From assembly GCA_965243065.1 (NCBI GenBank), contig CBDETO010000005.1:1883520-1947519 (forward strand): a DNA stretch of 64,000 nucleotides, written 5' to 3'. The stretch is from Bdellovibrionales bacterium. GTDB taxonomy: Bacteria; Bdellovibrionota; Bdellovibrionia; Bdellovibrionales; UBA1609. This document shows positions 2,897 through 49,147 of this stretch, in pieces (position 1 is the stretch's first letter; each line of letters begins with the position of its first letter). A program made the position numbers and the translations under genes. The notes under the pieces are model-generated. The model was not told the origin of the DNA. It ran no database searches and worked only from the letters and a program-made list of their open reading frames with translations.

Positions 2897-5524
2897 TTAG
2901 CATAGGTTTTCTTTTTTTAATCCATATTTAAGAGTATAGGAAAATCTATACCCTTTACAAGTTTCCGATTGCCATTCTTCTCTATCAGGTATTTTAGTGA
3001 ACCGCAAATAGTAGAAACCTTGAATTATCTTTGCTGAAATATAACATTCCCAAGATTTAGGAACAGGGATAGTATTTTGATATAATTCTTCCCATTTTCT
3101 TTTATCTTTTGTTTCAACATTAGGAACTGCTTCACCTTCAAGGAAATAGTAAGCTCCATTTTTTTCGATAACAGGCACAACACTTAAATTCATCTCTCCC
3201 TCTCTTGTTAAAATTGCTGCATTTTCATCTGTGTCATTGAAAAAAGTATTTACGGATGTTAAAAGTCTCGCATTGGATTGGCTAGCATCACTTTCTCTTT
3301 TATACTTTCGAAAAGCCTCTATAATGTTTTCTGGTTCTTCTGTCCATCTCTCTCTTTGATACACTTTTTCTATCCACTCTCTGTAAGCTTTGGGAAATAT
3401 AATGTAACCAAGGGATTCTTTTCCATAAAGTAATTGCTGAGTCCGCCAGAGTGCCCGCTTATTTTTATATATATATTCATGGGTTTTATAGTCCCATTTG
3501 TCTTTTTCTGGAACAACAATAGAGCAAAAAGCTTTTTCAAAACCTTCAGGCCGTTGTTTCTCATGTCTGTGCAATCTGCCTATACGTTGAAATAATAAAT
3601 CCATAGGACATAAGTAAGTAATAAGCCAATCAAAATCAATATCCAAAGATTGCTCCAAAACTTGTGTGCCAACTAAAATACAAGCATCTTTCTTACTATC
3701 TTTGCCATATTTTTGTATCACAGATTTTTCTTTTTTCATTCTATCTTTATAACGATATCGAGAGTGAAAAATATCAACGGAAATCTCTCTCTCCATAAGT
3801 CTTTCCGCTATAACCTGAGCATCATTTACCAAATTGCAGATAATACCAACTTTAGCTGATTTTTGCTTTACCGTATTTGCAATTTTTTCCAATTCGTTTT
3901 CATCAAGAGACATGTTATTGTTTCTCCACAATTCAAAGAAAGTTTTTTTATGTCTTTCATCCTGGTCTAAAGAAAATGCTCTTAAACTTGAGTATTCTTT
4001 TTTGTCTTTATTAGTTTCTCTAACAGACTGTAAGATTAGGGGGTACTTATTCATGTGATCTTCATTCATAGAAATGCTTGAATCCCAAGTTTTTAAAAGC
4101 TGTTCCTTTTGAAACCAAGGCAAAGTTGCAGATAAAAGAATAACACTGCCACCAATTTGCTTCTGTGATTTAATAACTTTTTTTAAAAGACCATACATAT
4201 AGGCATCATAAGCGTGAACTTCATCAATAATAAGAACACTTTTACCGATACCAAAAGAACGAATAAAGTAATGTTTTAACGATGTTATTGTAGATAAAAG
4301 AACCTGATCTACAGTGGTAACAGCGATTTGTCCTAAAAAAGCTCTTTTTCTGGAAACAGCTAACCATTCATTACATTGAACTATAGCTTTATTTCCTTCA
4401 GCACCTGTTTGTTCAAAACTGTTTTTAATCAATTTTTTAAAGTCTTGATTATAAGGACTTTTTCCGTGAGCCAATATAACATTTTGGCCAGAGGAAAATA
4501 TTTTTTCTGAAACAATTCTCAGACGAGGAAGAATAGCATTAGCAGTTGCTTGTGAGGGCAACGCAAAGCTGATGCTGTCTGCAAAACCTTTTGCCAAAAG
4601 CTTAGACGCAAAAGCTATTGCTGCTTCTGTTTTTCCGCTCCCTGTGCTGGCTTCCATAATGATTAAACTAGGAATGATTTTCAATTTAGGAATCAATGTT
4701 TGAACATTTCTTGATCGTAATTCTGGATAAATCTGATTCATTCCTCCTTGAGTAATAATTTCTGTTAACAAGCCAAATTTTTTTAATACTTCTTGAGCTT
4801 TTTCTCTTCTTTTATTAAACCATAAAGATAAATCATGTTGAGATTCTGTAATTTCCTTTTGAGTTGCATATTTAAAATAATCTGTATTAGAACCAAGCCA
4901 ATCACAAACAGCACAAAAACCAGCCAACAAAACAGGAGGTTGCTCTTGTATATTCATATTTTCTAAACTAATGCATTGAGGTTTTAAAAATAATTTTTCC
5001 ATGTCTTTGACAAAATATTCTCTCACTATCTGGTCTCGTCTCCTTTCTTCTTTTGGCACATAAGATGGTAAGAAATTAGGCTCTGCATTATTAGGTATTG
5101 TCCCGTGGTGACCAGCAGTGTGAGCTAGCCAGTTTTGTAAATACCTTTTTTGATTACAGTTTTCAAAAAGAATATCACTTTCATGGACAAACCATTTATA
5201 ACCTCCTTCACCATGATCATAATTTGTATTTACCTCATTAGTATTATAAGGAGCTATTTCAGGAACCTTGTTTTGAAACCGCATATCCAGTTTACCATAA
5301 TCGTGTAAAGCAATAAAAAACAGAACCAACGCTTGTATCTGATTTTCTAAAAAACCAGTCTCTTGCATAAAACTGTTCCGTATGGCAGAGCTATGATTCC
5401 ACCACTCATGAGCTACTGCTACCACATCTAAAGAATGCAAATACAAAGGATGAGACTCAATATCTCCATCTTCTTTTTTTCTAGCTTTACCCCAATATTT
5501 GAAATAAGATTTGGATTGATTCAT
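2897..5524 (-). CDS. cas3: CRISPR-associated helicase/nuclease Cas3 (HD + DEAD/DEAH helicase)
   Basis: 875 aa. N-terminal HD domain (HSLDVVAVAHEWW ... ALHDYGKLDMRFQ), helicase motif I EASTGSGKTEAA, motif II DEVHAYD, later motifs VGTQVLEQSLDIDFD and QRIGRLHRH. Confidence 0.9.
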   Translation of the reverse strand: MNQSKSYFKYWGKARKKEDGDIESHPLYLHSLDVVAVAHEWWNHSSAIRNSFMQETGFLENQIQALVLFFIALHDYGKLDMRFQNKVPEIAPYNTNEVNTNYDHGEGGYKWFVHESDILFENCNQKRYLQNWLAHTAGHHGTIPNNAEPNFLPSYVPKEERRRDQIVREYFVKDMEKLFLKPQCISLENMNIQEQPPVLLAGFCAVCDWLGSNTDYFKYATQKEITESQHDLSLWFNKRREKAQEVLKKFGLLTEIITQGGMNQIYPELRSRNVQTLIPKLKIIPSLIIMEASTGSGKTEAAIAFASKLLAKGFADSISFALPSQATANAILPRLRIVSEKIFSSGQNVILAHGKSPYNQDFKKLIKNSFEQTGAEGNKAIVQCNEWLAVSRKRAFLGQIAVTTVDQVLLSTITSLKHYFIRSFGIGKSVLIIDEVHAYDAYMYGLLKKVIKSQKQIGGSVILLSATLPWFQKEQLLKTWDSSISMNEDHMNKYPLILQSVRETNKDKKEYSSLRAFSLDQDERHKKTFFELWRNNNMSLDENELEKIANTVKQKSAKVGIICNLVNDAQVIAERLMEREISVDIFHSRYRYKDRMKKEKSVIQKYGKDSKKDACILVGTQVLEQSLDIDFDWLITYLCPMDLLFQRIGRLHRHEKQRPEGFEKAFCSIVVPEKDKWDYKTHEYIYKNKRALWRTQQLLYGKESLGYIIFPKAYREWIEKVYQRERWTEEPENIIEAFRKYKRESDASQSNARLLTSVNTFFNDTDENAAILTREGEMNLSVVPVIEKNGAYYFLEGEAVPNVETKDKRKWEELYQNTIPVPKSWECYISAKIIQGFYYLRFTKIPDREEWQSETCKGYRFSYTLKYGLKKENLC

Positions 5525-5576
5525 TTATTAAAAATAAGGTTCATGGTGACTTAAGCGGTTTATTTCTAACAATTTT

Positions 5577-5696
5577 TCACAACAACATATACAGATTATC
5601 TTTCCTATAATTAAATCTAAACTCACACTCTTTGAGATGCAAGTAAAAAGTATCCTTATTCATTCCTCTAAATTTAGATAATCTCACTTTAGCTAA
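5577..5696 (-). pseudogene. C-terminal fragment of an IS1595-family (ISXO2-like) transposase
   Basis: Own translation: ...AKVRLSKFRGMNKDTFYLHLKECEFRFNYRKDNLYMLL*. The LHLKECEFRFN-R tail is the characteristic C-terminus of IS1595-family transposases. No upstream catalytic part is present. Confidence 0.5.
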
Positions 5697-5738
5697 TGGA
5701 ATGTCCCTGAAAAACGGACAGTGAGTAAGCATCATTTT

Positions 5739-5981
5739 TTATGGCGGCCAATAAAATCCTTTTTTTCCAGGTATTTGTTTCAACTTTCCCTGTTTTTTTA
5801 ATTCAGCTAAAAGAGCATGAGCAAAACCACAATTATACGCTTGTATAAAACCGACTTCTTTACTTAATATTTGTGCTCCAAAACACTTCTTTGGCTTTAT
5901 ATTTTTATAATACTCCAATACCACATCTAAAAGCTCTTTCTGTGCTCTTTTCACTTTTTCTTTTATCTGCTCTTTTGTCAT
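5739..5981 (-). CDS. Hypothetical 80-aa protein, possibly a small winged-helix DNA-binding protein
   Basis: ORF track. C-terminal half ALLAELKKQGKLKQIPGKKGFYW looks wHTH-like. Lies just upstream of cas3 on the same strand. Weak RBS. Confidence 0.4.
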   Translation of the reverse strand: MTKEQIKEKVKRAQKELLDVVLEYYKNIKPKKCFGAQILSKEVGFIQAYNCGFAHALLAELKKQGKLKQIPGKKGFYWPP

Positions 5982-6307: not shown

Positions 6308-6904
6308 CTAAAACTTAGAGTCATCACAATCTTTTACCGCAGGTATCTCAACTACCTGGCCTTTCTCATTAGCTTGTATTATAGTATCAAGACTTGATAC
6401 ATCTGAATAAGCCCCAATTATAAATGTGTTTGTACCTAATAGACAAGCCGGTGCATTGACACCCTCTGTCCCCGAGTGGGCAGTCCATGTTCCAGCAGGC
6501 GAAGCACCAGTACATAAGGCTCTAGTGGTATGTGCAGCGATGCTACATTTCCCCTCACCATCAGATATAAACTGAAGTGCACTTATACCACCAATAGCAC
6601 TTACAGTACACAAATCAGGAGCGGCTTTACCCGCACCAAAACCAAAAAAACCTTTATTCTTAAAAATAGGGCTGGTACTTCTATCTGTATCCATTCCCAC
6701 TTCTTCCAGATTATGACAATAACTAGAATCCACAGCATACTTAGCACCATAGGCTTTTTGACCATTTCCGACCTCTGCCCTCATTGCCATAACAATAGTA
6801 TTTTTTTTATAATTCCTATAAGAGGGAACAGCTATACTAACGAGCACTCCAATAAGGCCCACAGTGACCAAAATTTCAATAAGTGAAAAACCTTTATTAT
6901 TCAT
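6308..6904 (-). CDS. Type IV pilin / pseudopilin (prepilin-type N-terminal cleavage/methylation domain)
   Basis: N-terminus MNNKG|FSLIEILVTVGLIGVLVSIAVPSY is the class III signal (G-FSLIE with Glu+5). Cysteines occur in the C-terminal half. AAGGAG RBS upstream. Confidence 0.8.
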   Translation of the reverse strand: MNNKGFSLIEILVTVGLIGVLVSIAVPSYRNYKKNTIVMAMRAEVGNGQKAYGAKYAVDSSYCHNLEEVGMDTDRSTSPIFKNKGFFGFGAGKAAPDLCTVSAIGGISALQFISDGEGKCSIAAHTTRALCTGASPAGTWTAHSGTEGVNAPACLLGTNTFIIGAYSDVSSLDTIIQANEKGQVVEIPAVKDCDDSKF

Positions 6905-19441: not shown

Positions 19442-20137
19442 ATGATGAGTGGAAAAAAATATAAAGCGGTTCGAGATAAAATAAAATCAGAGGGAGTTTA
19501 TCCTTTGGATAAGGCTTTACAGATGGTGATAGAAAACCCTGTAGCGCGTTTTGATGAATCTGTGGATGCCGCTCTCGTACTGGGTGTAGATACGCGTAAG
19601 AACGATCAGCAGGTGCGGGGTTCTGTAGCCCTTCCTCATGGTTTAGGTCGGAAAGTGCGTATTTTGGTGTTTGCCAAAGGAGCTTTAGAGGAAGACGCTA
19701 AAAAAGCCGGAGCTGATTTTGTAGGGGGGGAGGATATGGTGGAGAAGATAAAACAAGGTTGGTTGGATTTTGATTGCGCCATATCCACTCCTGATATGAT
19801 GCCTGTGGTTTCAAAAGTGGCTAAAACTTTAGGTCCCAAAGGCTTAATGCCCAATCCAAAGTTAGGTACAGTGACTATAAAGGTAGCTCAGGCGGTAGAG
19901 AGAGAAAAAAAAGGTACGGCTTCTTTTCGTGCGGATAAAAATGGCATCATTCACAGTTCTGTTGGCCGTCGTTCAATGGGTCTGGATGGGGTAAAGGAAA
20001 ACCTGTTGGCTTTTTTAAGAGTGGTTATCAAATCTAAACCGGCTGGTAGCAAAGGTGTTTACTTAAAGAAGATAGCTTTATCTTCCACAATGGGGCCTTC
20101 TGTTTTGGTGGATACAAATGACCGTGCTCTTGCTTAG
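19442..20137 (+). CDS. rplA: 50S ribosomal protein L1
   Basis: 231 aa. FDESVDAALVLGVDTRKNDQQVRGSVALPHG. Conserved order after rplK. Confidence 0.95.
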   Translation: MMSGKKYKAVRDKIKSEGVYPLDKALQMVIENPVARFDESVDAALVLGVDTRKNDQQVRGSVALPHGLGRKVRILVFAKGALEEDAKKAGADFVGGEDMVEKIKQGWLDFDCAISTPDMMPVVSKVAKTLGPKGLMPNPKLGTVTIKVAQAVEREKKGTASFRADKNGIIHSSVGRRSMGLDGVKENLLAFLRVVIKSKPAGSKGVYLKKIALSSTMGPSVLVDTNDRALA

Positions 20138-20275
20138 TTGTTTTGAATGCGGATATAGATGTGTGCAGGACTAGATTCTCGCTCCCCGTTTTCATGGGGA
20201 CAAGCTTCGCGGGAATGACGAACTTACGGGAATGATGAACGGGAGTAACAGTTTAGAAGAAAAGGAAAAATCATA

Positions 20276-20806
20276 ATGATTACAAAAAGGAAAAAAGAAG
20301 AGCAGGTTAAAAGCTTATCCGAGGGTATGCAGAAAGCCAAGGCAGGTTTTCTTGTGAATTTTCAAGGTTTAAATGTGCAACAGATAACAGAAATGAGAAA
20401 AGATTTAAGAAACAAGGGACTAGCTGATATGAAAGTATGTCGAAACACTTTAATACGAAAAGCTCTATCTGCCTGGCCGGAGGCAAAAGAACATGTAGGC
20501 TCTCATTTGACAGGCTCTAATGCTTTTATCCTGGCTTTTGAGGACCCTTCCCGAGTGGCTAAAATTCTTTATGATTATGTAAAAAAAACAGAAGTTCTGC
20601 AAATCAAAGCAGGGGTATTGGAAGGAAAGGGGATCGGTGCACAAGATGTAAAAACACTGGCTACATTACCTTCTATAGAAGTTCTAAGAGCTAGGCTTTT
20701 ATCTATGCTTTCCGCTCCTATGTCTCAGTTGTTGTCTGTTCTTTCCGCCGCCCCTAAAGGCTTACTAAGGGTGTTTGATGCTTACACAGAAAAAGAAAAA
20801 GAGTAA
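20276..20806 (+). CDS. rplJ: 50S ribosomal protein L10
   Basis: 176 aa. Typical L10 N-terminus (KEEQVKSL...GFLVNFQGLNVQQITEMRKDLR). Follows rplA. Confidence 0.9.
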   Translation: MITKRKKEEQVKSLSEGMQKAKAGFLVNFQGLNVQQITEMRKDLRNKGLADMKVCRNTLIRKALSAWPEAKEHVGSHLTGSNAFILAFEDPSRVAKILYDYVKKTEVLQIKAGVLEGKGIGAQDVKTLATLPSIEVLRARLLSMLSAPMSQLLSVLSAAPKGLLRVFDAYTEKEKE

Positions 20807-20862
20807 AGAGTCAGTGGATTATATTTATTAAAAGGGAAGGGCTGGCCTGTGGATGTGGTACT

Positions 20863-20911
20863 TTACTGAGGCTTCATTAAGCCTTTGGATTTATAAAAGT
20901 ATGTTAAAAAA
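20863..20911 (+). repeat. 49-bp direct repeat, left copy (TTACTGAGGCTTCATTAAGCCTTTGGATTTATAAAAGTATGTTAAAAAA)
   Basis: Identical to 22043-22091. Contains hairpin AGGCTT-CATT-AAGCCT. Confidence 0.9.
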
Positions 20912-20942
20912 CACAAGGAATGAAAAAATCAAAATGATATTT

Positions 20943-21777
20943 ATGAAAAGAATAATTATTTTACTTTTCTTTTTTAGTAACGGAGCTTTTAGTGCTTTTT
21001 ATACAAAGTACAGTTATGAGAAGTTAAGTAAAAATAAAGAAGGTTTTAAAGAAGTCGTTTTATTTGAATGGCCATCGAGTGAGTTCCCTTTAAAGGTGTG
21101 TGTTGATAGGAATCTACCTTCCGGTTGGTTTGAAGTAATAAAAGAAGCTGCTGATATGTGGGAGGTAGCAGTTAAAAGTTTCTATAGAAAATATATATAT
21201 CCATATACTGATCGGGAAGGGAGAAGAAACTTTGCTTCTTTATTCTTTAATTTATTTAATGTTTATAGTAATTGTAAAAGCAGAGGAATAGAACCTGATG
21301 TCTATGTCAGTAGGAACCGTTTGAATAGTGCAGACTATGAGCATTCTCTTTTTTATGCTTCAAATAAAAAAAGAGTAGGAATCACTAATTATAAAGAACT
21401 CTTTGATTGGCTACGCTTGTCTTATGATATAGATTATATGGTAATAGATTTTGATAAAGAGACTCCTTTCAGTACATCTTTAGGACCTTATCACAATAGA
21501 GGGGCAGTTGTTACTTAATACAGCTATGCACGAGTTGGGACATGTTATAGGTATAGCGCATTCTAAAGAGAGGAAATTAATGTATTATTATAATACTTAT
21601 TGTTTAGGTAAAACATGTCCTCCTACGGAGAGAAATATTTATGATTTTTTAGCCTATTATTTTATTAGGACAGGTGTAAATCCCTTGATTATTTATGTTG
21701 CAGATGTACAAATAAAGAAAAAGTTAAGAGGGGAAGTTTTGGATGAGTGGGCAGTGGAATTACTTTCACCTGAGTAA
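20943..21777 (+). pseudogene. Secreted metzincin-type zinc metalloprotease, interrupted by a 1-nt frameshift near the G-run at 21501-21504
   Basis: Signal peptide MKRIIILLFFFSNGAFSA. The second frame carries HELGHVIGIAHS (HExxHxxGxxH). Frames 20853-21518 and 21508-21777 overlap. The downstream frame is open only from 21484, so the shift lies in 21484-21518. Confidence 0.6.
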
Positions 21778-22033
21778 GTACTTTATATTTATTTTGTTTA
21801 TTCTGTTAGTTGGGTGTGGGAAAAGGCCTGGATGTATTCCTCCTTGGTATATTGGAGACCCATTAAAACCCTGTGAGGAGAAGTGTAATAGAGTACAAAA
21901 ATGTGATACTGAAGAATGTAGAGAAAATTGCTCGGAACGATGTTTTAAAGAGTTAAAAGAAGAGGAAGAAAACATCTGCCGTCTTGTTAAGAAGAGGGAG
22001 AAGGAGCGTCGAGAACGGGAGGGTTGGCCCTAA
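21743..22033 (+). CDS. Small Cys-rich lipoprotein (96 aa)
   Basis: Lipobox LLVGC, then CEEKCNRVQKCDTEECRENCSERC cysteine ladder and a K/E/R-rich tail. Confidence 0.5.
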   Translation: MSGQWNYFHLSKYFIFILFILLVGCGKRPGCIPPWYIGDPLKPCEEKCNRVQKCDTEECRENCSERCFKELKEEEENICRLVKKREKERREREGWP

Positions 22034-22042
22034 TGATGGGGC

Positions 22043-22091
22043 TTACTGAGGCTTCATTAAGCCTTTGGATTTATAAAAGTATGTTAAAAAA
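22043..22091 (+). repeat. 49-bp direct repeat, right copy
   Basis: Identical to 20863-20911. Confidence 0.9.
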
Positions 22092-22165
22092 ACATTATAT
22101 CGGAAGAAATAAAATGACAATAACAAGAGAAATAGTTATGACAACAGAAACGGGGAGGAAATAAA

Positions 22166-22546
22166 ATGACAATAACAAAAGAACAATTGATTGACCACTT
22201 ATCTCAAATGCCGGTTATTGAGGTGGCAGGCTTAATTAAAGAGCTTGAGGAAAAATGGGGTGTCAGTGCTTCGGCACCGGTCGTGGCGGCAGCAGCCGCC
22301 CCCGTCGCGGGAGCCGCAGCGGCAGAAGAGGAAAAAACCGAGTTTAATGTCACTTTAGCGGGTGTAGGCAGCAATAAAATTGCGGTTATTAAAGAAGTGC
22401 GTAGTTTAACAGGTCTGGGGTTAAAAGAGGCAAAAGATCTGGTGGATGGAGCTCCTAAGTTGATAAAAGAGCAAGTTTCCAAAGAAGAAGCGGATAAAAT
22501 GAAAGCGGCTTTGGAAAAAGCAGGGGCTAAGGTAGAAGTGCAGTAA
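22166..22546 (+). CDS. rplL: 50S ribosomal protein L7/L12
   Basis: [12 protein letters not shown]..., Ala-rich hinge, [16 protein letters not shown]. Confidence 0.95.
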
Positions 22547-22547
22547 G

Positions 22548-25500
22548 ATGTCTAAAATTTCTATAACAGCATCTAATATTCGATTGAGGAAAAGTTTTGG
22601 TCGTGTTGCCAATGCTGTAGATGTTCCCAATTTAATAGAACTGCAAAAATATTCTTATGAAAATTTTTTACAAAAAGATGTAGATCCCGATAAAAGACAA
22701 AATAGGGGCCTTCAGGCGGTTTTTAAATCTATATTCCCCATTGAGGACTATAAGGGTGTCGTCCGCATGGAATTTGTTAAATATACCTTACAATATCCTG
22801 TCTATGATATTGATGAATGCCGCCAAAGAAAAATAAGCTATGCCGCTCCGTTAAGGGTTTTACTTCGGTTAATTGTATTTGATGTTCAGGAAGGTACAGG
22901 TGAGAAGACCATTAGAGATGTTAAGGAACAAGAGGTGTTTTTAGGAGAAGTCCCTCTAATGACGGACAGTGGATCTTTTATTATCAATGGAACAGAGAGA
23001 GTGATTGTTTCTCAGCTGCATCGTTCTCCAGGGGTCTTTTTTGATCACGATGGAGGCCGGTCCAATACCACGGGAAAACTCATTTACTCGGCACGGATTA
23101 TTCCTTATCGTGGTTCCTGGTTGGACTTTGAGTTTGATCATAAGGATTTAATCTATGCGCGTATTGATCGCCGTCGTAAATTTCCCGCTACTACTTTTTT
23201 AAAAGCTTTAAATTACACGGAAGAAGAAATTCTAGAATATTTCTATGATCTTTCTTTGGTCTCTGTATCACCTGATGGAAAAATCTTTCGCCCGATTGAT
23301 ATTGAAAAAATGGCCGGCCAGAAAGCCCCTTCTGATATTAAAGACCCTAAAGGAGATATTATTGTTAAAGCAGGTCGTAGAATTACCCGTCTGGTGATTA
23401 AAAAAGTATTATCTGCCCATGTGAAAAAAGTGGAACTCACCCCGGCGGATTTGAATGGGACAGTGATAGCTAAACCCATTTTTAATGCTAAAACAGGGGA
23501 GATTATTGCGGATACCAATCAAGCTATGACGGAGGAAATTTTTGAAAAAGCCAGAGCTAATGGCCTCTCCCAATTTCATCTGATCTTTTTTGATGGTTTT
23601 GCCGTGGGTGCGTACCTTTGTAATACTCTATTATTGGACAAAGTTTCCAATAAAGAAGAGGCTTTATTGGATATTTATAAACGGATGCGGCCAGGAGAAC
23701 CTCCCACTATGGAAGCGGCGGAAAACTTCTTTAGTCGTCTCTTTTTTGATCCTGAAACTTATGATTTAGGAGAAGTAGGTAGATTGAAGATGAATCATCG
23801 GTTTTACATGTCGGCATCGGAGAAAAAAAATAATTCAGGTATTTTAAATAATGCGGATATTTTAAATGTTGTTCACACTTTAATTGATTTGAAAAATGGC
23901 AAAGGGCAGGTGGATGATATTGACCATCTAGGAAATCGTCGTGTGCGTTCTGTTGGGGAGTTAGTGGAAAATCAATATCGTATTGGCCTGGTCAGAATGG
24001 AAAGAGTGATTCGGGAAAGAATGAGCATGAAGGACCTGGATACAATGATGCCTCATGATCTCATTAATGCTAAGTCGGTTTCCGCCGTTATAAAGGAGTT
24101 TTTTGGTTCCAGTCAGCTTTCTCAATTTATGGATCAGACCAACCCTTTATCTGAAATTACACATAAGCGTCGTTTATCTGCTTTAGGCCCTGGTGGTTTA
24201 ACTCGTGATCGTGCTGGCTTTGAAGTGAGAGATGTACACCCTACTCACTATGGCCGGATATGTCCTATTGAAACACCCGAAGGCCCCAATATAGGTTTAA
24301 TTGCCTCATTGGCTACCTTTGCCAGAATTAACAAATATGGTTTTATTGAAACTCCCTACTGTGAGGTCAAAGGGAATAAAGTTACTGATAAAGTAAATTA
24401 TGTTTCTGCCCTGGAAGAACAAAAGCATTGTATAGCCCAAGCGGATCCTTATTTTAATGAGGTGCCCAAGGGGCAAAATGTGACGGTTCGTATGGATGGG
24501 GAGTATAAAGTAGTAAAGAAAGAAGAAGTGTCTTTAATGGATGTTTCTCCCAGTCAGCTAGTATCCATTGCCTCTTCTTTAATTCCTTTCTTGGAGCATG
24601 ATGATGCCAATAGAGCTTTAATGGGATCTAATATGCAAAGGCAGGCGGTTCCTTTAATGAGGGCAAGTGCTCCTTTGGTGGGGACCGGTGTGGAAGGTTT
24701 AGTGGCCAGGGATTCCGTAACTAGTGTGGTTTGTAAAGCCGATGGGGTGGTGGAAGAAGTGGATGCCAGCCAGATTGTTGTGCGTCTTTTTCATAAAAGA
24801 GGAAAATTGGGTGCCTCGGTGGATATTTATAACTTGGTTAAATATCAAAAAACAAATCAAAACACCTGTTTTAATCAAAAGCCGATTGTTCAATTAGGGG
24901 ATCATGTTCGAAAAGGAGATGTCATTGCCGATGGTCCTTCCACCGATAAAGGGGAGTTAGCTTTAGGTCAAAATATTCTAGTCGCCTTTACACCTTGGGC
25001 GGGATATAATTTTGAGGATTCTATTCTCATATCCGAACGACTGATAAAGGAAGATGTATATACCTCTATTCATATTGAGGAATTTGAATGTGTGGCCAGA
25101 GACACTAAGTTGGGACAGGAGGAAATCACTTCTGATATTGCTAATGTGGGGGGAGAGGCTTTAAAGGACTTGGATAGTTCGGGCATTATTCGTATTGGAG
25201 CTAAGGTCAAACCAGGAGATATTTTAGTTGGAAAGATTACCCCTAAGGGGGAATCACAGGTTTCCCCTGAAAAAAAACTCCTGTTAGCTATTTTTGGTGA
25301 AAAAGCAGGAGAAGTGCGTGACACCTCTCTTCGGGCCCCATCCGGTGTGTATGGAACGGTTATCAATACACAAATTTATAGTCGGGACCCTATGGATAAA
25401 AATGAACGACTAGCTGAAATTCTTCATGAAAAAAGGGAAAAACTGAAAAAAGATTTTGAAATTGAGAAAAATGTTATTCAAAACAACACCATTGATCAGA

Positions 25501-26717
25501 TCAGAGAGATCTTGGTTGGGGCTAAGACAGTGGATGTTCTGCTGAGTGATGATGGTTCAGAGGAACTGCTCCCTAAAGGGCATATTATTGAAAGTCAGGA
25601 TGTGGATAAAATTCCTTTCCCTCTGTTGGCTTATATACCTTTGAAGGAGGATGCGGTTGCAGAGGCTGTTTCCCAATTAGTGGAGGCAGCTAGAAATCGG
25701 TTATCGGCGGTGGAAATGGTTTTTCAAGATAGAGTGGAGCGTCTTTCCAAGGGAGATGAGATGCCCCCTGGTGTGATTAAAATGGTAAAGGTGTATGTGG
25801 CTGTTAAGAGAAAACTACAAGTGGGAGATAAATTTGCCGGTCGTCATGGAAACAAAGGGGTTATATCTCATGTTTTGCCAGAGGAGAGCATGCCTTACAT
25901 GGCCGATGGCACTCCGGTTGATATGGTGCTCAATCCTTTGGGAGTGCCTTCTCGTATGAATATAGGACAAATTTTGGAAACGCACTTGGGTTGGGCGGCT
26001 TATGCTTTAGGTCGGCAACTTCAGGATTATATTGATCAGTTTAATGCTGATCACACTAAAACCGCTTTGTTGGATTTTTACAAAGGGAATAAGGATATTA
26101 CAAATAGAATAAAAAAAGGAGATGAAACCTCTTTAAAAAAGATGGTTCAGGGAATGAGAGAGGGTGTTTTTATTGCCACTCCTGTTTTTGATGGAGCAAA
26201 GGAAAAAGATGTTAAGGATCTATTAACGGCCACCGATCTGCCTCGTTCCGGCCAGACAGTGTTGTTTGATGGTAGAACAGGAGAGCCTTTTCAGAGACCG
26301 GTTACTGTGGGAGTGATGTATATGCTAAAATTACATCACCTGGTGGAAGAAAAAATTCATGCTCGTTCTATTGGACCGTACTCGTTGGTATCTCAGCAGC
26401 CCTTAGGAGGGAAGGCGCAGTTCGGAGGCCAACGTTTAGGGGAAATGGAGGTATGGGCTATCGAAGCTTACGGAGCGGCTTATTGTCTTCAGGAGTTTTT
26501 AACAGTGAAATCGGATGATGTGGCCGGGCGAAGAAGAATGTACGAAAGTATTGTTAAAGGAGAAAATATTTTAGAACCAGGGATTCCAGAGTCTTTTAAT
26601 GTTTTAATTAAGGAGTTACAGGGTCTAGGTTTAAATGTGGAGATGATAGAATCAGAGTTTTTGACAGAAGCTCCAAAAACTGGCGGCAAACCAGAACTAG
26701 AATCAATAAAGAACTAA
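22548..26717 (+). CDS. rpoB: DNA-directed RNA polymerase subunit beta
   Basis: 1389 aa. Classical motifs ([51 protein letters not shown]). Starts 1 nt after the rplL stop. Confidence 0.98.
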
Positions 26718-40213: not shown

Positions 40214-40580
40214 TTTTCCTGAAGTTCGCCAAATAAAACCCTTTGGGTTTAAAAGAGTGGTAAATTTATCATAGTTTTCCTGAAGTTCGCCAAATAAAAC
40301 CCTTTGGGTTAATGATGAACCTTTCGGAAGAGAATAGGATTTAAAAGGCTCGGACATGCGGTTTGCCACAAATTTGTCATTCCCGCGAAAGCGGGAATCT
40401 AGTTGCTCATGTGTCAAATCCGAACTCGCTTTTAAGCCCTATTCTCTTCCGAAAGAAGCTTTTTTCTTTATGTGAGAGATTTTACCAAAGTTTATCAAAT
40501 AAAACCCTTTGGGTTTAAAAGAGTGGTAAATTTATCATAGTTTTCCTGAAGTTCGCCAAATAAAACCCTTTGGGTTTAAA
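40214..40580. repeat. 61-bp tandem repeat (TTTTCCTGAAGTTCGCCAAATAAAACCCTTTGGGTTTAAAAGAGTGGTAAATTTATCATAG), ~1.6 + ~1.6 copies split by a 183-bp insert containing a MITE-like element
   Basis: Units at 40214, 40275 (truncated at 40310) and 40494-40580. Each has hairpin AAACCC-TTT-GGGTTT. Confidence 0.75.
40321..40455. mobile_element. MITE-like element M1 (135 bp) with perfect 18-bp terminal inverted repeats CTTTCGGAAGAGAATAGG
   Basis: TIRs at 40321-40338 and 40438-40455. The core contains CATGCGGTTTGCCACA, a REP hairpin ATTCCCGCGAAAGCGGGAAT and TCCGAACTCGCTTTT. Confidence 0.65.
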
Positions 40581-41839: not shown

Positions 41840-42334
41840 AATATTTGTTTGTTTCAATTTGATACAAATAAGAATCCTTTTATTGAGGAAGATTTATTTT
41901 TATTTACCTTTCTAGAATTTCTATTTTCATTAAAGATTAAAAGAACTTACTTATATATCTTGTTTTTAAAAATGAGGGTAGCTCAGCCTATTGAGCTTCA
42001 TAAACTAAATATGGACTAAATATTTTATTTGTTAATTAATTTTTTTATGATAGCCTTAATTATAAGGTCATGCTTTTAAGGGTTTTCTTGTTTTAATGAT
42101 GATGGGCTTTTGTGTATCTTTTTGGAGGCCAAGGACACTTTTCAGTGGAAAAGAGGAGTCAAAAAATTTAGATTGCTATAGATCTGTCATTTCTGCGGAA
42201 GATTGTCATTCCCGCGAAAGCGGGAATCCAGATCTGCTAAACTGAAAGCCCCTAGCTTATTCATCTCAAAAAATGGGAAAAATTTTTATAAAATAGAGTT
42301 GACAAGGATGTTTAAAATATGAATATTGTTTTTA

Positions 42335-42489: not shown

Positions 42490-42637
42490 CTTTTCAAGAG
42501 AAAAGAAGAGTCAAAAACTCAGACATGCGTTTTGCCACAAATATGTCATTCCCGCGAAAGCGGGAATCTAGTTGCTCTTGTGCTCAAGCTTGTCCTCGTG
42601 AAAACGGGGATCCGACTCGCTTTTTCCTCTTATTCTC
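42490..42637. mobile_element. MITE-like element M3 (148 bp)
   Basis: CTTTTCAAGAGAAAAGAAGAGTCAAAAACTCAGACATGCGTTTTGCCACA ... TCCGACTCGCTTTTTCCTCTTATTCTCTTCTGAAAAG. Carries two inner hairpins. Confidence 0.6.
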
Positions 42638-43123
42638 TTCTGAAAAGATGTTGTTTTCTATATACGATCGTCAGGCAGAGTACTGTGGCTTTATACCGAA
42701 CGGGTATAGCTGTGGAAACCTATCTTTTCAACAGAGTTGATATAGTGAAGAAGCTCTGTTTCCATTTTTTATGTCATTTCACAAAACAAATTATACCGGT
42801 TCGGTACGGGATTCCTGTTCTTTGTTTTTACGAGGACAAGCTTCACGGGAAGGACAAACATTTACAGGAATATTGTCATTTCTACAAAGTATGTCATGCC
42901 CGCGGAAGCGGGCATCTCATAAGCTACGGCTTTGTCACCTCCGCGAAAGCGAGGGTCTTATAGCTACGAGGAATAATGATCTATGAGTAAAAATATGTTC
43001 TTCAGGAAAACAGTGTTACCTTTCTGGATTCCCGCTTTCGCGGGAATGACAGTGCTTTCGCGGGAATATTGTCACCCCCGTGAAAACGGGGGTCTTGTTC
43101 ATTTACTGGATTCCCGCTTTCGC

Positions 43124-43344: not shown

Positions 43345-43373
43345 AACAAGAGCGACTGGATTCCCGCTTTCGC

Positions 43374-43447
43374 GGGAATGACAATGCTTTTACGGGAATG
43401 ACAGTGCTTTTACGGGAATGACAATGCTTTTACGGGAATGACAGGGG
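43374..43447. repeat. 20-bp tandem repeat GGGAATGACA(A/G)TGCTTTTAC x3.5
   Basis: Read directly. Confidence 0.8.
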
Positions 43448-49014: not shown

Positions 49015-49147
49015 AGTGTGAGTCTTTTATTTTGGAAAAACATTTCGAAGATGAATAAATCAGAGAGGGAATTTGTCATTCCCGCGAAAGCCCTGTCATT
49101 CCCGCGCAAGCGGGAATCTAGTAAATGAACGAGACCCCCGCTTTCGC

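Follow-up and report, generated by a model that had tools for sequence, protein, structure and literature searches.

We describe a gene cassette of about 1.2 kb that separates rplJ (ribosomal protein L10) from rplL (ribosomal protein L7/L12) in an uncultured Bdellovibrionales bacterium from a sponge metagenome. Few gene adjacencies in Bacteria are as conserved as rplJ-rplL, and the two genes are generally regarded as a unit of expression. We studied a 64-kb stretch of this genome (hereafter the window; positions refer to it unless another sequence is named), in which the cassette consists of a frameshifted metzincin gene (M) and a cysteine-rich lipoprotein gene (L). The material for comparison consisted throughout of metagenome-assembled genomes (MAGs) or metagenome contigs. 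We found that three nearly equidistant lineages have three different states of the cassette. Our preferred interpretation, to which we assign a probability of roughly 0.6, is that M and L constitute a restless accessory cassette without a recombinase, located in the rplKAJL-rpoBC operon of a small sponge-associated clade, and that the cassette turns over by duplication, deletion, and recombination.

The gene order in the window is tuf, a tRNA gene, secE, nusG, rplK, rplA, rplJ, the insert, rplL, rpoB (22548-26717), and rpoC. The distance from rplJ to rplL is 1.36 kb, and the insert contains three open reading frames (ORFs) at 20853-21518, 21508-21777 (in the +1 frame), and 21743-22033. Its GC content is 31-32%, compared with 40-45% in the flanks. 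The split of the gene pair had been reported in a first-pass annotation made from the sequence of the window alone, and it is real: both flanking genes were confirmed by Pfam, and the same order was reproduced in two other samples. A scaffold from the first of these (L001; ENA, sample ROBB21-1, SAMN13943211) is identical to window 20171-22458 at 2287 of 2288 nt and passes in one piece through rplJ, the left copy of a 49-nt direct repeat (S1), M, the lipoprotein gene, the right copy of the repeat (S2), and rplL. The third sample (ENGE20-1, SAMN12347673) gave two contigs. One of them, L002, extends from rplA past rplJ to a break 9 nt into S1, and the other, L013, begins at the base after the end of L002 and reads S1-M-L-S2-rplL. 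As the arrangement was recovered in assemblies from two further samples, the assembly chimera that the annotation had proposed to check for was not found. An exact look-up of the L7/L12 sequence of the window retrieved no 'excised' allele on record.

We then compared the synteny of the locus in the relatives. The cassette was found between rplJ and rplL in no other lineage examined (L003, L004, L005, L007, and L009). In L003 (JAPPLY010000054, RHO3_bin_33; L10 identity, 90%), the cassette is located between rplA and rplJ, 17 nt after the stop codon of rplA, with M at 4722-5480 and L at 5561-5854. In L007 and in L008, an Illumina scaffold that is 100% identical to L007 (L10 identity, 85%), the cassette is in neither spacer. 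In L009 (LXNI01020399; 81%), the last ~150 nt of M and an intact L are located just upstream of the rplJ leader, and the contig begins within this M remnant. The more distant L004 (70%) and L005 (64%) have the plain order rplA-rplJ-rplL-rpoB. The window, L003, and L007 form a trichotomy, in which the informative sites from 6.2 kb of flanking genes are divided 104/99/93 among the three topologies; L009 branches outside these three, and L004 and L005 are further out. Due to the trichotomy, the ancestral position of the cassette cannot be polarized.

The ends of the cassette differ between the two insertion sites. In the window, the cassette is bounded by the 49-nt repeat (S), whereas a perfect 95-nt direct repeat (4592-4686 and 5761-5855), which corresponds to the 3' end of the lipoprotein gene, flanks the L003 cassette. 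The order of the blocks is L3'-S'-leader-M-L in L003 and S-leader-M-L-S in the window, that is, one unit in a different register. A Logan contig from another run (L006) matches L003 4657-5790 at 100% identity, and its two ends are within the two copies of the 95-nt repeat.

The two copies of S (TTACTGAGGCTTCATTAAGCCTTTGGATTTATAAAAGTATGTTAAAAAA) at 20863-20911 and 22043-22091 are 100% identical, and the distance between their starts is 1180 nt. No third copy was found in the window. The perfect direct repeats that the annotation had placed on both sides of the insert were therefore borne out by the repeat computation, but they are not a clean 49-bp duplication. A local alignment of one junction against the other showed homology over ~130 nt, of which the 49 nt are the perfect core. 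To the left of S, degenerate homology continues for ~30 nt, in which 20831-20862 resembles the last codons and the stop codon of the lipoprotein gene (22013-22042; shuffle p = 0.01-0.03). To the right, it continues for ~45 nt at ~65% identity, up to the ATG region of M in one copy and of a short upstream ORF (uORF) preceding rplL in the other. The annotation had suggested a recent insertion or recombination event; the perfect identity points to recent recombination, and the junctions are not those of a single insertion that duplicated exactly 49 bp of its target.

S is related to the resident spacer, as had been supposed: a single S-like copy is present in the rplJ-rplL spacers of L003 and L007, which contain no cassette. 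The copies of S differ by ~15-25% between lineages. The first 12 nt of S1 (GGCTTACTGAGG, including the preceding GG) resemble the rplJ codons for G-L-L-R, which read GGCTTACTAAGG in rplJ itself. In L009, the position of S is occupied by a clear copy of the rplJ 3' end, which encodes GLLRVFDTYER-stop (score, 26-29; 0 of 2000 shuffles as good, p<0.0005) and stands just after a relic of the lipoprotein 3' end. S thus seems to have arisen from a duplicated rplJ 3' end, of which GGCTTACTGAGG would be the only part still recognizable in the window. The lipoprotein relic in the cassette-free rplJ-rplL spacer of L009 (GAGAGGGTTGGCCCTGATG) is strong (p<=0.0004); it follows that the end of a lipoprotein gene was once located between rplJ and rplL in the L009 lineage. 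In the L003 and L007 spacers, such a relic was plausible by eye but not significant in the shuffle test.

The divergence of M is far younger than that of the genes around it. Between the window and L003, 4 of 73 4-fold sites differ in M (5.5%), as against 280 of 970 in the flanking core genes (28.9%; p = 2e-6), and the neutral-site divergence of M is about 5-fold below that of the flanking core genes (window 20943-21742 compared with L003 4764-5560). The AT-rich composition of M was considered as the cause of the low synonymous divergence and was rejected, because the deficit persists when A/T-ending 4-fold sites alone are counted (2/59 in M and 130/578 in the flanks; p = 1.5e-4). M is 92% identical between the window and L003, and the adjacent non-coding S and leader segments are 67-82% identical. 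As three indels already separate the M copies of 99.7%-identical strains (see below), this 92% identity is incompatible with the full core-genome divergence. By these divergences, the lineages must have exchanged M, perhaps together with part of L, or taken it from a common source well after their split, and the same comparison implies a putative recent import of ~0.8-1 kb between lineages.

The metzincin gene is a pseudogene that is decaying fast in the window, with lineage-specific lesions. The first ORF of the insert has its likely start at 20934 or 20943 and begins with the signal-peptide-like sequence MKRIIILLFFFSNGAFSAF, and the second (HELGHVIGIAHS) matches Pfam Peptidase_M10 (1.4e-5, 25.5 bits; cut-off, 24) over profile positions 108-138 of 159 only. 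The frameshift claimed in the annotation is due to one extra G in the run at 21501-21504. When one G is removed from the GGGG, the result is a 277-aa protein that is colinear end to end with an intact homolog of 279 aa (P0003), which is encoded with P0008 on a 1.07-Mb ENA contig. The same GGGG is present in L001. The 99.7%-identical strain represented by L013 has GGG at this site, and it has lost both 374 nt between TAGGA microhomologies (21107-21480) and a single nucleotide at 21599; all three changes are within M, and the lipoprotein gene, S2, and rplL have no differences from the window. The L003 gene is unbroken at the site of the window lesion (GAG), and a 2-nt deletion truncates its C-terminus. 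In L009, ~80% of the gene has been lost. The differences between the window and L003 are distributed over the three codon positions as 17/12/28 in M and as 96/42/525 in the flanks. The protein entries P0002 (NCBI) and P0004 (ENA) correspond to the N-terminal fragment of M, and fragments of M are currently called as separate hypothetical proteins, a point of use in the annotation of symbiont MAGs.

The M family resembles the matrixin-like metzincins (MEROPS M10/PF00413) in the motif HExxHxxGxxH, the LM turn a few residues downstream, the signal peptide, and the length of ~250-280 aa. HELGHVIGIAH is encoded at ~21532-21564 in the window, and the family alignment of nine sequences shows no variation in H-E-x-x-H or the third H. 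In this alignment, the L-M column of the Met-turn (KLMYY in the window) is conserved at >=70%. The family differs from the matrixins in that the profile is matched over ~30-60 residues, at or around the gathering score, and outside this stretch the protein belongs to an orphan family; the intact P0003 is under the cut-off (21.7 bits), and its remote relatives reach 22.6-27.6 bits. Searches gave three matches among 5.8 billion proteins and 15 matches among 1.84 billion representatives at 26-31% identity, and all the family members have HELGH...H, the Leu-Met turn, and a Cys pair, with the M10 match around the active site only. A metagenome scan with the M alignment found no further M, and the 1.1-kb contig of the remote relative P0042 contains nothing else. 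Further differences are that the copy in the window is a pseudogene and that an AlphaFold2 model of P0003 from a four-row alignment had a mean predicted local distance difference test score (pLDDT) of 35.6, too low to show the metzincin fold of a five-stranded sheet and three helices.

The lipoprotein gene, in turn, is intact. Its ORF is unbroken in all the assemblies (96-98 aa; 98 aa in L009), nine of the nine Cys residues are conserved, and the three window-type assemblies encode one and the same protein. The annotation was right to call it a Cys-rich lipoprotein: the lipobox, as read from the sequence, is ...FIFILFILLVGC GKRPG in the window, LLVGC in L003, and FVAGC in L009. The gene overlaps the 3' end of M by 35 nt and has its own Shine-Dalgarno sequence (GAGGGG). 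The dN/dS values are 0.18-0.33, and no homologs were detectable outside the clade. L has been maintained and is probably still useful.

We propose that the cassette is no transposon, that it would be bounded by a duplicated module of ~130 nt, composed of a relic of the L 3' end, S (from the rplJ 3' end), and an rplL-type leader, and that only the central 49 nt of this module would still be, or would again be, identical. Homologous or illegitimate recombination by the host between such modules would move, duplicate, and delete the cassette; the events may include tandem duplication, asymmetric deletion, Campbell-type excision with re-integration, and gene conversion. The right-hand module would hand rplL the upstream region that its relatives have, and the L10:L12 ratio would stay set at translation initiation. 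Recombination between modules would account for the states in the sister lineages (at rplJ-rplL, at rplA-rplJ with a greater-than-unit-length redundancy of 95 nt, or none) and for the coalescence of M, which is far younger than that of the core genes. The two copies, which are of greater than unit length and circularly permuted, are the product expected of a putative tandem or circular intermediate. No transposase or integrase domain was detected by Pfam in the three insert ORFs, and the adjoining genes are rplJ and rplL. No terminal inverted repeats pairing the ends of the insert were present in the repeat listing of 19500-23500, and no relatives of the cassette were found in viral contigs or PLSDB plasmids.

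Several points weigh against this interpretation. The exact path of rearrangement is not reconstructable from five genomes, as more than one multi-step scenario agrees with the data to the same degree. The comparison covers genomes other than the one that encodes P0003, the intact M, and P0008, so that any ancestral location of the cassette is conjectural. The lipoprotein 3' relic is weak in the window (p = 0.01-0.03) and undetectable in L003 or L007, and the sharp edges of the 49-nt perfect tract are equally consistent with a discrete target duplication or with selection on S. By eye, the M-adjacent leader in the window is closer to the resident rplL leader of L003 than to the leader of the L003 cassette, and a simple cassette-borne leader therefore does not fit. 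Finally, the putative co-transcription of the cassette, the translation of L, and any function of the uORF are predictions made from the sequence.

A tentative alternative is that the M-L pair is a recombinase-less 'operon hitch-hiker' that is exchanged horizontally among co-resident sponge-symbiont lineages and would insert, via a circular or tandem intermediate of greater than unit length carrying a copy of the rplL leader, into spacers of the operon with the strongest expression in the cell. If this were true, the pair would be retained because the lipoprotein gains expression at the level of ribosomal proteins, and the protease would be dispensable and decay; its signature would consist of a coalescence of M that is 5-fold younger, of insertion at two sites, and of perfect terminal repeats in circular permutation. 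A cassette truly exchanged between lineages would be a minimal mobile unit exploiting the expression of the ribosomal operon.

We consider it unlikely that the arrangement is old and stable and that the copies of S are kept identical as a functional cis element upstream of M and rplL, such as a hairpin for RNA processing or stability or a translation enhancer. The identity would then not be a sign of recent recombination. In favor of this view, every member of the clade has S upstream of rplL, the sequence on either side of the perfect tract is far more diverged, and both the window and L007 keep a hairpin, though with different loops (-10 to -12 kcal/mol). The hairpin that the annotation had noticed in the repeat is indeed present (GAGGCUU/AAGCCUU with a 4-nt loop), but its fold is no better than that of shuffled sequences (z = -0.9 and -1.1), and it is lost in both L003 copies (z = +0.3 and +0.8). 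Moreover, the above-mentioned difference of ~15-25% between lineages indicates no strong constraint on the sequence of S, L009 has quite a different sequence at this position, and M, as a pseudogene, has no need for a conserved upstream element. Other roles of S were considered and were rejected or found weak. The scans flagged S neither as a terminator nor as a promoter, and shuffled sequences form folds of a stability similar to that of its hairpin. A Xer/dif-like site in S (TATGTTAAA, by eye) is a 9-nt match in AT-rich sequence, and the L003 cassette is not bounded by S. No integron attC-type inverted core sites (RYYYAAC...GTTRRRY) were seen by eye in S.

A reading close to that of the first-pass annotation, namely, a one-step recent insertion of foreign DNA into the rplJ-rplL spacer by a mechanism of the mobile-element type with the 49 bp as the target-site duplication, seems to us doubtful to a still greater degree. 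It is favored by the perfect and sharply bounded direct repeat, by the presence of S as resident spacer sequence in the relatives, by the higher AT content of the insert than of the flanks, and by a site that is free of the cassette in every other lineage examined. However, the homology does not stop at either edge of the 49 nt, the empty spacer of L009 and, weakly, the sequence to the left of S1 contain a relic of the lipoprotein 3' end, and the repeat around the L003 copy is another one, the 95 nt of the L 3' end. The insert has neither a transposase or integrase domain nor terminal inverted repeats, and the target duplications of IS elements and transposons are far shorter than 49 bp.

It is very improbable that M is functional through programmed +1 frameshifting on GGG-G and that the cassette is an active module of a protease and its partner. 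The run would permit tRNA-Gly to re-pair in the +1 frame, an identical GGGG is present in two assemblies, and after the shift no stop codon interrupts the frame from the zinc motif to the conserved C-terminus; nevertheless, the 99.7%-identical strain has GGG, an out-of-frame deletion of 374 nt, and a further 1-nt deletion, L003 has GAG and a separate deletion of 2 nt, most of M is gone from L009, the substitutions are evenly spread over the codon positions, and a stimulatory element is not evident. Lastly, an assembly chimera or a repeat-induced misjoin, in which the insert would not truly lie between rplJ and rplL, is hardly credible: every sequence is a metagenome assembly, L002 stops 9 nt into S1, and L006 starts and ends within the 95-nt repeat of L003, but L001 from another sample crosses rplJ-S1-M-L-S2-rplL in one scaffold with one mismatch in 2288 nt, L013 from a third sample crosses S1-M-L-S2-rplL, and the source contig of the window is reported to be ~2.08 Mb.

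In the preferred interpretation, module recombination leaves rplL with its own translation-initiation region. The annotation had raised the question of how the L10:L12 stoichiometry is maintained; we found little evidence of a problem, as rplL retains the ~125-nt upstream region found in the relatives, which consists of S, a leader, a uORF of 16-17 codons, and a Shine-Dalgarno sequence (GGGGAGGAAA). The uORF is a copy of the 5' end of rplL (26 nt at 96%, E = 7e-6). It is conserved at L003 6651-6703, L007 8613-8665, and L009 1365-1417, in which its TGA overlaps the ATG of rplL (ATGA), and it is absent from L004 and L005. A metagenome scan with the uORF DNA pattern found only LXNI01020399, that is, L009. 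The uORF may couple or tune the translation of L7/L12.

No intrinsic terminator was predicted on the + strand between rplJ and rplL. The sole promoter-like site on the + strand of the insert, at 22138-22167, cannot serve rplL because it ends at the start codon of the gene. The cassette is likely transcribed by read-through from the ribosomal-protein promoters, with the translation of rplL set locally, and this combination of read-through transcription and local initiation would explain why the lineage tolerates the split. In Escherichia coli and Bacillus subtilis, the L10(L12)4 complex acts at the rplJ leader (PMC4538822). The rplJ leader is untouched by the insertion in the window. The locus shares with the rplJL autoregulation of these two bacteria (PMC4538822) the position of rplJ-rplL downstream of rplKA and the long leader before rplJ. 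It differs in that rplJ has a leader with repetitive extragenic palindromic (REP)-like repeats and no Rfam L10 leader, in the clade-specific uORF before rplL, and in the 1.36 kb between the two genes. Rfam gave no match in or around the insert. For the L10 leader, neither the search of the window at the gathering threshold nor that of 19900-22700 with E<=5 gave a match.

Genes have been found inserted elsewhere in this operon cluster. In a survey of Gammaproteobacteria and Bacilli, no insertion was found between rplJ and rplL, and duplication followed by asymmetric loss was proposed as the mechanism for the rare insertions into the cluster (PMC8046335). As in those cases, a few unrelated genes are present here inside the highly conserved cluster of ribosomal-protein and RNA-polymerase genes, and relics of the flanking genes agree with the proposed model (Brandis 2021), namely, a copy of the rplJ 3' end (L009; L005), a copy of the rplL 5' end (the uORF), and the lipoprotein 3' relics. 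The insertions in that survey are located between operons or after rplL, and are old and family-wide, whereas the present one is inside the rplJL pair, is polymorphic among lineages diverged by ~10%, and has two alternative spacers, perfect flanking repeats, and one dying gene. The cassette also resembles the repeat-flanked amplifiable units that undergo tandem duplication and Campbell-type excision and integration. The likeness consists of the direct repeats of 49 and 95 nt, the permuted unit (S-M-L-S in the window; L3'-S'-M-L in L003), and the empty L003 and L007 sites that keep one copy of the repeat. In contrast to those units, the circular or tandem form is here only inferred, the repeats are very short for RecA-dependent recombination, and a move between the spacers needs at least one illegitimate junction.

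The cassette does not constitute a system of a new kind. It represents an unusual but well-documented form of gene insertion into a conserved operon, and the alternative sites, the permuted perfect repeats, and the young coalescence hint at a mobile cassette that lacks a recombinase. The locus is a natural experiment, in which a free-standing lineage has 1.36 kb of accessory DNA between the two genes and isogenic-like sister lineages supply the empty state and the state with the cassette one spacer upstream. It suggests that rplL need not adjoin rplJ as long as it retains a translation-initiation region of its own, and it offers a concrete and datable case of genes that would enter, move within, and leave a 'frozen' operon via short duplicated modules. 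Its practical value is modest, and lies in what it tells about operon evolution and the annotation of symbiont MAGs. The features of the locus are listed in Table 1.

Table 1. Features of the rplA-rplL region in the window
Feature	Position	Strand	Evidence or remarks
rplA (L1)	19442..20137	+	ORF, orthologs in relatives; PF00687 in the gene table of L007
rplA-rplJ spacer and rplJ leader	20138..20275	+	Copy of REP-like palindrome (TTCGCGGGAATGACGAAC, 20206-20223) and 17-nt tandem unit
rplJ (L10)	20276..20806	+	Pfam Ribosomal_L10 PF00466, 1.1e-23
l3', weak relic of the lipoprotein gene 3' end	20831..20862	+	Adjoins S1 on the left; aligns with 22013-22042
S1, left copy of the perfect 49-nt direct repeat	20863..20911	+	Holds a 7-bp hairpin
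Leader 1, upstream of the metzincin start	20912..20942	+	Homologous to the L003 rplL leader (CACGAGGAATGAAAGAAACAAAGTGA), by alignment
Metzincin pseudogene, N-terminal frame	20943..21518	+	Signal peptide MKRIIILLFFFSNGAFSAF; stop reached after the frameshift
GGGG run with +1 frameshift (one extra G)	21501..21504	+	GGG in L013, GAG in L003
Metzincin pseudogene, C-terminal frame	21505..21777	+	HELGHVIGIAH, Met-turn KLMYY, conserved tail ADVQIKKK...WAVELLSPE
Cys-rich lipoprotein gene, 96 aa	21743..22033	+	Lipobox LLVGC, 9 conserved Cys
S2, right copy of the perfect 49-nt direct repeat	22043..22091	+	Repeat computation
Leader 2, between S2 and the uORF	22092..22113	+	Alignments
16-codon uORF, partial copy of the rplL 5' end	22114..22164	+	Ends 1 nt before the rplL ATG
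rplL (L7/L12)	22166..22546	+	Pfam Ribosomal_L12_N PF16320 and L12 PF00542, 1e-18 and 1e-30

Other peculiarities of sequence were observed around the same genes. In L007 9183-16528 (contig_34), rpoB and rpoC are each called as two or three fragments, probably due to long-read homopolymer errors, and the indels of L007 should not be over-interpreted. In L005, a 32-nt copy (94%) of the rplJ 3' end is located 70 nt downstream (6496-6527 and 6566-6597), and in L004, the 300-nt rplJ-rplL spacer contains a duplication of ~165 nt (6572-6653 and 6734-6819). Together with the uORF of the clade, these comparisons indicate that the rplJ-rplL spacer is duplication-prone across the order.

The rplJ leader also contains repeats. 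A palindrome family resembling REP sequences or miniature inverted-repeat transposable elements (MITEs) (GTCATTCCCGCGAAAGCGGGAAT...) has seven matches in the window, compared with 0 expected (20206-20223, 40372-40389, 42201-42218, 42541-42558, 42842-42859, 43369-43386, and 49071-49088). Such elements are also present in the rplJ leaders of L003 and L009 and beside the truncated L009 metzincin gene, and not in L007. The rplJ leader of L004 has 2.5 tandem copies of a ~66-nt unit (5752-5919). In ENGE20-1, the leader has an extra tandem copy of ~65 nt, in which the sequence of window 20165-20213 occurs twice (L002 1-949 compared with window 19989-20871); the rplJ leader is thus length-polymorphic between strains.

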